This document shows, one piece after another, positions 29,040 through 32,370 of a stretch of DNA of 64,000 nucleotides; the stretch's first letter is position 1; each line of letters starts with the position of its first letter. Location: assembly GCF_055900595.2 (NCBI RefSeq), contig NZ_CM148325.1. The stretch is one strand, 5' to 3'. Made by a program: the position numbers and the translations under genes. The notes under the pieces are model-generated. The model was given only the letters and a program-made list of their open reading frames with translations. It was not told the origin of the DNA and did no database searches.

Positions 29040-29330
29040 AAGTATTTTATGAAGGAGCAACAGCATCGATTTTTATTTTAGAAAATAAATACGGCATACT
29101 CAACCTATTGGAGCCTGAACAATCCGGTGACTTCTGCGCTAATCGGGGACGTTTATAAGCACATATAATTGATATTATCGTCCTCCATCACAATTTCAGA
29201 AATGCACGTGTGATTTTTTTGCATCCGGCGTTTGGACTATGTGGAGTTCAAGAGTGGGAAAGTTACAAGAGGTTGAGGGGATAATTAAAGGGATGCTTAT
29301 GACATTAGATATCCGGATAGGTACGGATAT

Positions 29331-29390
29331 CGTTGTTATTAAATCTAGTTTGTTGTTATTAAATCTAGTTCGTTGTTATTAAATCTGGTT
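29331..29390. repeat. Three tandem copies of a 20-bp unit (YGTTGTTATTAAATCTRGTT)
   Basis: Direct head-to-tail copies at 29331-29350, 29351-29370 and 29371-29390, differing at one or two positions each. Confidence 0.9.
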
Positions 29391-30019
29391 TATACGTTAA
29401 GATGCAACTACAGCAGAAATTGCCACTGTTAATTTTTTCATCGTGAGCCCTTTTATTTGAACTATTATTTAAAAATGATGTCACTGCACTATAAATATTC
29501 ATCCAATCAATGAGATTATTTCAAGATGTAAGTTTTAGTTTCTCATTTAAATTGTGAAGTAGATCCCTATCTTTATCTGAACTGTTTCTATTGCACACAA
29601 TGCATGACTATTTTGTGAACGAATATAAATTTGGTAGTCAAATTATATTAAAGGTTGTTATTTATGATTGACTCATAATTTATTTATTTAATTTAAATAG
29701 CCTAGAAATAACCATGGAAATTATTTGCATGATGTTTGTTTGGATTTATTAATGTAATTGAGGTGGTTTTATTTAATACGCAATATAGCGCCGCTTGATA
29801 TTAGTTCTATTTTTTTTGCGTAAGATAGATGAGACAAACAGAGACGCATAATGGTTTGCAAGGCTCTAATACTTTGATGTTGAGGATGTGATGGGGCATG
29901 TACGGGGCATAGTACAATGATGTCCATGCTGGTGTAGATAATCTCCAGGCTTATCCGGTGCGCCGTAAAACCCCGTCCTTCAGGGCAGGGATATAAGGCG
30001 CGGTTTTCCACCTGACCAG

Positions 30020-30443
30020 GTGTTTGCTGTTGTTCAATGTATTGGCGGATGACGGATATTGGCGCACCTCCGCAGCTACTGGCAAAATAGCCAGCACTCC
30101 ACAAAACGCCTTTGTAGTAATACCTGACTGCAATATCTGGTCGATCTCGTCGCAGTCACCTACCCGATACGCCTTTGAGGCTGTTTACCAGACTGGATAT
30201 CGCCAGTTTGGGAGGATAGTTAATTAACAAATGGACGTGATCTGGTTCGCCATCCATTTCAACCAGTTCAGCTTCAAAATCAGCGCATACATTTGAAAAG
30301 TAAGCGCGTAGTTTTTCTGTCGCGTCATGGTCAAAAATCTGACGTCGGTATCTGGTGACAAAGACCAGGTGAACATGCATCAGGAAAACACAATGCCTTC
30401 CACGCCGGATATCGGTTTCTTTTTTCACAGACCAAAGTATCAT
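30020..30443 (-). pseudogene. tnpA: IS200/IS605 TnpA (HuH Y1 transposase) interrupted by an in-frame TGA after codon 95
   Basis: N-terminal 95 aa carry the HuH motif (HVHLVF); TGA at 30156-30158; the same frame continues ...YYYKGVLWSAGYFASSCGGAPISVIRQYIEQQ (conserved TnpA C-terminus). Confidence 0.75.
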
Positions 30444-30450
30444 TTGGCCT

Positions 30451-31659
30451 GTGAAACGACTACAGGCATTTAAATTCCAGTTAAGACCAGGTGATCAACA
30501 GGAGTGTGAAATGAGGCGCTTCGCAGGCGCATGTCGTTTCGTTTTCAATCGTGCTCTGGCGCTTCAGAATGAGAATCATGAGGCCGGTAATAAATACATC
30601 CCTTACGGGAAAATGGCTTCCTGGCTGGTTGAGTGGAAAAATGCCACTGAAACGCAATGGCTTAAAGATTCTCCCTCACAGCCATTGCAACAGTCACTGA
30701 AAGACCTTGAGCGGGCTTACAAAAACTTCTTCCGGAAGCGGGCTGCTTTTCCCCGATTCAAAAAGCGGGGACAGAATGATGCATTCCGCTACCCGCAGGG
30801 CGTTAAGCTCGATCAGGAAAACAGCCGTATTTTTCTGCCGAAACTGGGCTGGATGCGTTACCGCAATAGCCGTCAGGTCACGGGTGTTGTGAAAAATGTC
30901 ACTGTCAGCCAGTCCTGCGGTAAGTGGTACATCAGTATTCAGACAGAAAGTGAAGTATCCACTCCGGTTCACCCTTCAGCATCAATGGTCGGGCTGGATG
31001 CTGGCGTGGCTAAACTCGCCACGCTGTCAGATGGCACAGTCTTTGAGCCTGTAAACAGTTTTCAGAAAAACCAGAAGACGCTGGCGAGACTTCAGCGACA
31101 GTTAAGCCGCAAGGTCAAATTCAGCAACAACTGGCAGAAGCAGAAACGCAAAATACAGCGACTGCATTCCCGTATCGCAAATATCCGCAGGGACTACCTT
31201 CACAAAGTCACAACGACCGTCAGCAAAAACCACGCAATGATAGTCATTGAGGATTTGAAGGTCAGCAACATGTCAAAGTCAGCAGCGGGTACGGTCAGCC
31301 AGCCGGGGCGCAATGTCCGGGCAAAATCAGGTTTAAACCGTTCGATACTGGATCAGGGCTGGTATGAAATGCGCCGCCAGCTTGAGTACAAGCAGCTCTG
31401 GCGTGGCGGTCAGGTGCTTGCTGTTCCGCCAGCGTACACAAGCCAGCGTTGCGCGTGCTGTGGTCATACAGCGAAAGAAAATCGCCTGTCACAAAGTCAA
31501 TTCAGATGCCAGGTATGTGGATATACAGCGAACGCCGATGTAAACGGCGCTCGTAACATTTTAGCGGCGGGGCACGCCGTTCTTGCCTGTGGAGAGATGG
31601 TGCAGTCAGGCCGCCCGTTGAAGCAGGAACCCACCGAAATGATTCAGGCGACAGCCTGA
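30451..31659 (+). CDS. tnpB: TnpB (IS605 OrfB) RuvC-like RNA-guided endonuclease, apparently intact
   Basis: 402-aa ORF with RuvC-I (GLDAG), RuvC-II (IVIEDLKV), zinc finger (CACCGH...CQVCG) and RuvC-III ([10 protein letters not shown]). GTG start at 30451; an ATG at 30511 is the alternative. Confidence 0.85.
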
Positions 31660-31698
31660 ACGTAGCAGGGATCCTCGTCCTTCAGGGCGTGGAGGATG

Positions 31699-32370
31699 TC
31701 AACAAACAGGTTGAATTAACTCCGCGCCCTGGTTTTTGACATTACCTACCGCGCGCGATACCGGGTGCCAGGTGAACTGGTTTGCTGGCACACAGCCGTT
31801 GGTAGCAATTTCTGATGCTTCTTTACCGCCAATCTCTTGCCGCATCCATTCCCGCGCAGCTTCTGGCGACAGTACCAGCGGGCGGCGGTCATGAATATCT
31901 ACCAGACCCTGGTCTGCTGCTGCAGTGACAATTAAAAATCCTTCGGCTTCGTCACCGCGCTCAAACGGTGTGCTACCTATCGCGGCCATAAAAACAGGTT
32001 GTCCGTCAGCACGATAGATAAAATAAGGCTGTTTTTTGTCGCCTTCTTTTTTCCACTCAAACCAGCCATCGGCAAAACAGATTGCCCGACCATGTTGCCA
32101 GAGCGGTTTAAACATACGACTGGTGGCCGCAGTTTCTACGCGGGCGTTAATCAGCGGCGGTTTATCCCACCATCCGGGAGCATATCCCCAGAAAACCGGA
32201 TCCAGATGAAGGTGTTCATCACGTTCACTGAGCAGAAGAACTTTGGTTCCCGGCGCGACGTTGTATCTGCCAATGGGTTCGGGATCATAGGGAATATCGC
32301 GTTCAATATCTTCCGCGAGAAGCGCAAGGTAATCTTCACGCGTTTGGGATTGGGCAAAGCGTCCACACAT
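31699..32370 (-). CDS. yedK: SOS-response-associated peptidase (SRAP) YedK
   Basis: Start trimmed to MCGRFAQ (catalytic Cys2). Confidence 0.85.
   Translation of the reverse strand: MCGRFAQSQTREDYLALLAEDIERDIPYDPEPIGRYNVAPGTKVLLLSERDEHLHLDPVFWGYAPGWWDKPPLINARVETAATSRMFKPLWQHGRAICFADGWFEWKKEGDKKQPYFIYRADGQPVFMAAIGSTPFERGDEAEGFLIVTAAADQGLVDIHDRRPLVLSPEAAREWMRQEIGGKEASEIATNGCVPANQFTWHPVSRAVGNVKNQGAELIQPVC

Follow-up and report, generated by a model that had tools for sequence, protein, structure and literature searches.

A predicted omega-RNA scaffold at the right end of a defective IS609-type element beside yedK in Escherichia coli

We analysed an insertion element that lies beside yedK in a 64-kb stretch of the Escherichia coli chromosome (64,000 nt of contig NZ_CM148325.1, assembly GCF_055900595.2; this whole stretch is called the window, and positions refer to it). 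The element is of the IS609 type within the IS200/IS605 group, occupies 29955–31702 (1748 bp) and combines a tnpA pseudogene with an intact tnpB. It is very likely that nt 31556–31702 are the scaffold of its omega-RNA (right-end RNA) and that the adjoining nt 31703–31718 supply the guide. We regard the element as an ordinary copy of a known system, that is, a defective insertion sequence with a known kind of TnpB guide RNA. It aligns without gaps over all 1748 bp with the K-12 insQ copy adjoining ydcO, at 98.2% identity (32/1748 positions differ); we take that K-12 element to be IS609. In addition to its identity to this reference copy, the element has the left and right subterminal hairpins, TTAT target and TCAA end of the IS609 type and lacks a target duplication. 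A functional Y1 (HUH) TnpA was not found in it, which makes it a non-autonomous copy of the IS609-type family. The surrounding gene order is fliE, emrE, ybcL, ybcM, the insertion element, yedK, yedF and yedE, and identical loci are present in many complete genomes.

A covarying structure across the tnpB 3′ end

A first-pass annotation made from the letters of the window had proposed that an omega-RNA scaffold overlaps the 3′ end of tnpB and the right end of the element. We found a conserved covarying structure there, and a scaffold published for the omega-RNA of IS609 is its homologue. The positions given in that annotation for the tnpB stop (31657–31659), the right-end hairpin core (31676–31688) and the minus-strand yedK stop (31699–31701), together with its reading of the YedK end as ...LIQPVC, were all correct. 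The region 31500–31718 folds better than shuffled sequences (z = -3.0). For 42 distinct sequences, we aligned the tract that begins with the third RuvC motif and finishes at the right end with MAFFT, which ignores structure, and ran RNAalifold on this alignment; the resulting five-helix structure combines several RNAalifold helices with a fifth hairpin placed by eye (Table 1). The helices span 31564–31693 on the tnpB strand and overlap both the tnpB 3′ end and the right end. In the MAFFT alignment, 93.4% of cells form standard pairs, as against 40–52% when the pairing partners are slid by 1–3 columns. Changes on both sides were found in 22/33 pairs (9–13 in the slid controls), the covariation score was 0.358 (≤0.10 when slid), and none of 500 shuffles matched the observed pairing and covariation values.

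A covariance model built from 39 sequences, the window sequence among them, had a single match in the 64-kb window, at 31556–31702, with a score of 158.7 bits that includes this contribution of the window to the model. About 40 relatives outside the model-building set scored 96–152 bits at the same position, and in every relative fetched the model had a single match at each tnpB 3′ end. When 82 sequences were aligned to the model, 94.5% of cells were paired and 28/36 pairs were compensatory, including all ten pairs of H4, in an alignment that is biased towards the structure to which it was fitted. Over both alignments together, the slid controls were 38–57% paired.

The covariation is paid for by the protein. 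The H1 stem varies as a unit, and the tail of TnpB varies with it (AAGHAV, ARGHRV, RAGHAR or ERGQRL), which argues that the RNA constrains the protein and not the reverse. The entropy of third codon positions, about 1.2 bits across the gene, falls to 0.57–0.75 bits from nt 31561 to the stop. Judging from these alignments, the constraint on the tnpB 3′ end appears to act on the RNA rather than on the protein.

Table 1. Features of the element and its flanks in the window
Feature	Position	Strand	Description and basis
Target / transposon-adjacent motif (TAM), TTAT	29951..29954	+	directly 5′ of left end; empty sites, other copies
Left end	29955..30017	+	imperfect hairpin 29971-29990 (UUCA-type loop); core matches right-end core except for one mismatch; conserved in relatives
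tnpA pseudogene (Y1 transposase)	30018..30443	-	in-frame TGA 30156-30158; normal stop lost
tnpB, 402 aa, intact RNA-guided endonuclease	30451..31659	+	stop 31657-31659; guided_TnpB profile, ISDra2 structures, motifs
Predicted omega-RNA scaffold core, ~147 nt	31556..31702	+	RNAalifold, pair counts, entropy, match to published scaffold
H1	31564-69 / 31575-80	+	loop GGGCA
H2	31586-90 / 31623-27	+	RNAalifold / pair counts
H3	31595-601 / 31610-15	+	RNAalifold / pair counts
H4	31641-49 / 31654-63	+	encloses tnpB stop
H5, right-end hairpin	31672-80 / 31685-93 (31672..31693)	+	UUCA loop; T.T mismatch 31675/31690
3′ tail GGAUGUCAA	ends 31702	+	end of scaffold core
Terminal TCAA of right end (cleavage site)	31699..31702	+	empty sites, other E. 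coli copies, 68 relatives
Predicted guide template CAAACAGGTTGAATTA	31703..31718	+	flank; antisense to last sense codons of yedK
yedK (SOS-response-associated peptidase), 223 aa	31699..32370	-	Cys added relative to 222-aa insertion-free allele

H5 serves twice: as DNA it is the recognition hairpin of TnpA, and in the predicted omega-RNA it would be the equivalent of stem 4. Its core, CGTCCTTCAGGGC, recurs as a 14-mer only once in the 64 kb, in the left end at 29974–29987, where it differs by one mismatch (0.26 matches would be expected by chance). The recurrence of this core in both ends, the requirement of a Y1 transposase for H5 and TCAA, and the fact that covariation in H5 is equally expected of a DNA hairpin would all suit a right end that is only a single-stranded DNA signal for TnpA, a hairpin and cleavage site with no role as RNA. 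We find this hardly credible for the structure as a whole. H1–H4 are situated within tnpB, 43–139 nt upstream of the boundary; each of them covaries, with the protein sequence bearing the cost, and the left end has no counterpart of them. In IS608, the right end that TnpA needs consists only of the subterminal hairpin and a few tens of bases around this hairpin, which counts further against such a reading.

As a side observation, a weak additional match to the scaffold model (30.6 bits) was seen in a Hahellaceae genome, about 1.1 kb downstream of the element (locus L028, 3850–3971); it may be a solo right end or a scaffold remnant.

Boundaries, target site and guide

Three independent comparisons, with empty alleles, with other E. 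coli copies and with relatives, put the right end of the element at 31702. For E. coli yedK alleles without the insertion, the alignment with the window begins at 31703; for copies of the element elsewhere, on chromosomes or plasmids, it stops at 31702. The empty sites of FDN-24 and K-12 RP437 read ...ggcTTAT/CAAACAGGTTGAATTAACTCC, with TTAT/CAAACAGG across the junction (slashes mark junctions), and the occupied window reads ...ggcTTAT/CCGGTGCG...GGAGGATGTCAA/CAAACAGGTTGAATTA, so that the right end is ...GGAGGATGTCAA at 31702; a single C gives this placement a one-base ambiguity. Among the 68 relatives from other genera with a readable right end (58–95% TnpB amino acid identity), conservation ends at GAGGATGTCAA and the flanks beyond are unrelated between loci. 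Since these comparisons agree, the element comprises 29955–31702, entered 3′ of TTAT, made no target duplication and has TCAA as its last bases. The first-pass annotation had placed the boundary near 31700, within 2 nt of the mapped end, and had suggested reading the TAM from empty sites, which give TTAT. The same TTAT/CCGGTG junction is found at the left of the K-12 ydcO copy and of a copy at yfeD, and in relatives the left junction motif is TTAT, TTAC or TTGAT. For elements that carry a tnpB, TTAT and TCAA are reported to be the most frequent cleavage motifs of the left and right ends, respectively (PMC9956272), and the TAM of IS609 is taken as TTAT in Table S2 of PMC12781874.

The predicted guide is encoded immediately beyond the right end; its length of 16 nt is assumed by analogy with ISDra2. 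Empty alleles in FDN-24, K-12 RP437 and O157:H7 carry TTAT/CAAACAGGTTGAATTA, that is, the TAM followed by a perfect target, and the occupied site has TCAA where the TAM would be. The flanks that follow the scaffold end are unrelated among copies and species, as for a guide taken from the flank.

Two other empty alleles depart from this match. One (locus L086, ~295–320) reads TTAT/CAGATAGG and has two TAM-proximal mismatches; the other (L087, ~300–325) reads TTAA/CAGACAGG, has lost the TAM and encodes a YedK that ends in ...PVC followed by a stop, without any insertion. By their sequences, both are candidate cleavage-resistant alleles. We rejected the idea that the ...PVC allele is an excision footprint, as its sequence is generally divergent and has TTAA instead of TTAT.

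The insertion also set the present end of yedK. Without the insertion, the gene reads ...CCT GTT TGA TAA at its 3′ end (...P V stop, 222 aa), and the element was inserted between bases 2 and 3 of TGA. The present gene ends ...CCT GTT TGT TGA, with one Cys gained, and its open reading frame ends ...ELIQPVC; residues 1–222 of the 223 match the NCBIfam profile, which has 222 positions. The suspicion in the first-pass annotation that the insertion had altered the YedK C terminus is thus borne out by the comparison with insertion-free alleles. Its expectation that the flank encoding the guide would coincide with the yedK 3′ end holds for the flank, which is the yedK 3′ end, and fails for the stop codon: the stop is the complement of TCA in the terminal TCAA of the right end, and the guide lies one base beyond it. 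From 31703, the guide template runs antisense to the last five-plus sense codons of yedK.

This geometry raises the question of whether the RNA acts on yedK itself. The two genes converge, the present yedK stop is inside the element, and the arrangement is the same at ydcO and yfeD, as might be the case if read-through tnpB/omega-RNA, complementary to the yedK 3′ end, mainly modulated yedK mRNA. We consider such an antisense regulator very improbable. The placement of TTAT sites, together with selection against insertions that disrupt genes, accounts for the geometry, and the flank is unrelated among copies, as for a guide and unlike a dedicated regulator.

To the left of the element, about 18 nt (ataatctccaggcttat) are all that matches insertion-free loci (in the region 29040–29950 of the window). 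Farther left lie an AT-rich stretch with a threefold repeat (gttgttattaaatct..., ~29333–29390) and then the emrE-ybcL-ybcM block. In other strains, yedL or fliE is found at the position left of the element, and a second rearrangement boundary therefore abuts it.

Relation to characterized TnpB systems

The protein partner of the predicted RNA is intact in this copy. TnpB matches the NCBIfam guided_TnpB profile with 392 bits, and its residues 3–376 match the structures of ISDra2 TnpB (8bf8, 8exa and 8h1j) with E = 8e-55. The RuvC motifs with the catalytic D, E and D begin at residues 181, 265 and 361 (GLDAGV, VIEDLK and the third motif), and two CxxC motifs (zinc ribbon) are present. Over 399 aa the protein is 85% identical to the IS609 TnpB of PMC12781874.

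By contrast with tnpB, tnpA is annotated as a pseudogene by RefSeq in an identical locus, and it matches the NCBIfam profile transpos_IS200 at positions 2–84 of 126 only. An intact TnpA of 138 aa is found in relatives from Serratia, Yersinia, Morganella and Klebsiella. We ruled out a frameshift as the defect, as translation gives an in-frame nonsense codon. The same in-frame TGA (SRLLRR changed to GR-stop-LRR) is present in the yedK copy and in the K-12 ydcO copy (locus L085, 5222–5647). At the yfeD site and at a fourth site, in a gene for a TetR/AcrR-family regulator, tnpA is also annotated as a pseudogene, as it thus is in every one of the four E. coli copies examined; the annotation gives an intact tnpB at 3/4 of these sites and a frameshifted one at the TetR site. 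The E. coli copies seem to have spread, or to have been homogenized, after the transposase was lost.

The closest published relative of the scaffold is the 207-nt 'IS609' scaffold in Table S3 of PMC12781874, which aligns without gaps to 31496–31702 of the window at 83% identity and has the same end, GGAGGAUGUCAA. That scaffold is identical to a Pantoea agglomerans plasmid locus (L023), and the system shares with the window copy both the insertion sequence family and the TAM TTAT. The window copy differs from it and from K-12 IS609 in its insertion site, and hence in its guide, which comes from the yedK 3′ end, and in the T.T mismatch in the right-end hairpin; the inactivation of tnpA is shared with the K-12 copy.

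We also compared the scaffold with that of ISDra2 from Deinococcus radiodurans (PMC10097598), whose TnpB is homologous to the window TnpB over the full catalytic length. We mapped the helices onto ISDra2 by eye from the PMC12781874 scaffold and the published structure, and the following correspondences are accordingly tentative. Stem 1 of ISDra2 would correspond to H1, stem 2 to H2 (GCUCAUGGAG...GAAGUGAGAAUC in ISDra2 and GCCUGUGGAG...GAAGCAGGAACC in the window), stem 3 to H3, and stem 4, the right-end hairpin with a UUYA tetraloop, to H5. The ISDra2 tail GAGGUUCAA would correspond to GAGGAUGUCAA in the window, with GAGG(A)U(G)UCAA in common, and the guide comes from the flank in both. The C-terminal region of ISDra2 TnpB is poorly conserved and disordered (PMC10097598); in both systems the RNA overlaps a dispensable C-terminal tail of TnpB, and the structural match of the window protein stops at residue 376. 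The two differ in the TAM (TTAT in the window, TTGAT in ISDra2) and in the length of the core (~147 nt and 116 nt, respectively). Unlike ISDra2, the window scaffold has H4, an extra family-specific covarying hairpin in which the tnpB stop codon is located and which is placed between stems 2 and 4.

More distant likenesses came from Rfam, in which three families matched the scaffold below their gathering scores: RAGATH-18 (25.4 bits, against a gathering score of 44.9), HgcC (19.3 against 50) and sot0042 (16.3 against 88). All three families are associated with TnpB-type genes. We used these matches as hints and not as evidence of membership, and we place the window RNA outside all three families. 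RAGATH-18 is the core of the guide RNAs of IS607 TnpBs (PMC11061315); its match falls at the expected position, over H2 and H3, with CCUGUGGAG...UGAAGCAGGAA shared, and the transposase is a Y1 enzyme here and a serine recombinase in IS607. The matches of HgcC and sot0042 reach over the right-end hairpin with its UUCA loop; PMC4615843 lists sot0042 among transcripts at tnpB 3′ ends and notes that HgcC shares their right-end-like UUCA tetraloop.

At the level of the DNA, the element resembles an additional characterized relative. IS608 of Helicobacter pylori has subterminal imperfect hairpins at both ends, inserts 3′ of TTAC, ends in TCAA and makes no target duplication. The window element has the same hairpins, a tetranucleotide target (TTAT instead of TTAC), the same TCAA end and no duplication, and is unlike IS608 in that its tnpA and tnpB are divergent and its tnpA is inactivated.

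Expected activity, distribution and right-end stop codons

If the system works as ISDra2 and other homologous TnpBs do, transcription of tnpB would continue through the right end into the flank, and TnpB would bind the structured 3′ part and trim it to an RNA of ~150–220 nt. The complex would then cleave DNA in which TTAT is followed by CAAACAGGTTGAATTA, which would be yedK without the insertion or the joint that excision leaves in the donor. With TCAA in the place of the TAM, the occupied site would be protected, and cleavage followed by recombination with an occupied copy would restore the element. Targets would require either a TnpA provided in trans or the arrival of DNA that lacks the insertion. 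We infer transcription, processing and cleavage in this strain from the characterized family: PMC10278001 describes the processing by TnpB of its own mRNA into guide RNA, and PMC10055086 describes the cutting by TnpB of TAM-flanked empty sites, with recombination with the occupied copy restoring the element. For E. coli K-12, PMC4615843 reports transcripts that extend over the 3′ ends of tnpB genes, and a UUCA 'RE-like tetraloop' (right-end-like) is described in the same paper.

At the level of the population, 1094/5426 complete E. coli genomes carry the element at yedK, and 667 of them have an intact scaffold-yedK junction; by an estimate from coverage counts, this leaves about 427 of the 1094 carriers without one. 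A deletion of exactly 100 nt between GTGGAG direct repeats (31589–94 and 31689–94) was seen in some strains, for example EC50, 13TMH22 and N427 (locus L004, 2990–3015). It takes out the 3′ arm of H2 and all of H3–H5, including the right-end hairpin, and fuses tnpB to the terminal GATGTCAA, so that tnpB overlaps yedK. This deletion explains the ~427 carriers at least partly; its share of them is an estimate and not a direct count.

Several observations weigh against the assignment of an omega-RNA and its guide to this right end. The ~427 carriers that appear to lack an intact right end suggest that it is dispensable, and tnpA is dead, so no local excision that would create a target is expected. 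Two helices of this copy are imperfect, H3 with an A.C mismatch at its base and H5 with a T.T mismatch; the latter is its sole scaffold difference from the K-12 copy (T at 31675, A at L085 6879, 1 nt in 147), and the A restores the H5 pair. In ISDra2, the stem-1 loop pairs with bases -5 to -3. The equivalent candidate pseudoknot here, between loop G-R-C-A and UGUC (-6 to -3), is pairable in more than 90% of sequences, with few changes, both supporting and breaking. A rival long-range helix from RNAalifold, ACAU (31556–59) with AUGU (31696–99), fits equally well, and covariation is decisive for neither; an ISDra2-like pseudoknot is compatible with the data and has no covariation support in the alignment. 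Rfam, searched at a permissive E-value, gave the three sub-threshold matches only and no family at its gathering score. A scan for sigma-70 promoters and intrinsic terminators gave no relevant site close to the scaffold and thus no basis for proposing a transcription unit of its own; this absence is compatible with processing from tnpB mRNA and does not demonstrate it. The study that assayed an IS609 TnpB with such a scaffold (PMC12781874) makes no statement in its text on activity. A literature search for work on a native E. coli RNA of insQ, ydcM or IS609 returned no study.

The most serious alternative is that the structure is still legible as an omega-RNA and yet inactive, together with TnpB, in an immobile E. 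coli copy, a fossil beside yedK. The tnpA nonsense codon common to the window and K-12 copies, the tnpA pseudogenes in all four E. coli copies examined, the two helix mismatches in the scaffold, the loss of H3–H5 and one arm of H2 at the yedK site in other strains and the frameshifted tnpB elsewhere would all fit a relic. We nevertheless consider it unlikely. Each of the 30 top-ranked genomes listed has an intact tnpB in its annotation; the scaffold differs from that of the K-12 copy at 1/147 nt, compared with 32/1748 over the whole element; and the guide is still a perfect match to common empty alleles.

Taken alone, this result carries little weight, as it confirms an unannotated and predictable non-coding RNA beside one of the commonest 'transposase' genes of E. 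coli. It does provide exact coordinates, a TAM and a target for the omega-RNA at the yedK site. Rfam has no family that captures this RNA, and our alignment and covariance model find it in every relative fetched. The yedK locus is also a natural test bed for TnpB homing, because 667/5426 genomes have the intact junction and both perfect and mismatched empty alleles exist. Some mild interest remains in the persistence of tnpB and its RNA without a transposase across E. coli, in the stop codons supplied by the right end, in the 100-nt deletion and in the natural set of alleles.

The stop codons change the logic of annotation, as those now used by YedK, YdcO and YfeD belong to the transposon. At the K-12 ydcO site (L085, 6903–6906), the stop is the right-end TGA, with CGA TAA TAA changed to CGA TAT TGA and a Tyr added. 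In yfeD of strain N47 (L090, 2305–2308), GCA TAA became GCT TGA, which is silent. The right-end TGA also ends converging open reading frames at Serratia and Pantoea loci (L008 and L023), where in L023 an Arg was replaced by Ser. The native ends of these genes were in-frame NNA-TAA and overlapped the TTAT target. Because a TAA is included in ATAA, the complement of the TAM, the cost of inserting at such an in-frame 'NNA TAA' is one residue at most. Such stop-site insertions, which would be nearly neutral, thus number three in E. coli (yedK, ydcO and yfeD) and two in other genera.

We counted the frames in which converging open reading frames meet the right-end TGA: the three frames were represented by 9, 5 and 5 loci overall and by 4, 1 and 0 among enteric loci. 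A binomial estimate of ~0.045 makes this enrichment suggestive at best, and the pattern may simply reflect the survival of harmless insertions. One could go further and propose both that IS609-type elements survive preferentially at in-frame 'NNA TAA' ends, where TCAA provides a replacement TGA at near-neutral cost, and that the TnpB and omega-RNA of E. coli, having outlived the transposase, are kept as an allele drive or guard against incoming insertion-free alleles, or for another host use, and not for transposition. We regard this combined proposal as a long shot. Not every E. coli site is of this harmless kind: at the fourth site, also a fixed one (L089, 278–2416, in CUVET20-PYO2), the element, with its frameshifted tnpB, interrupts the gene for the TetR/AcrR-family regulator in the same orientation.

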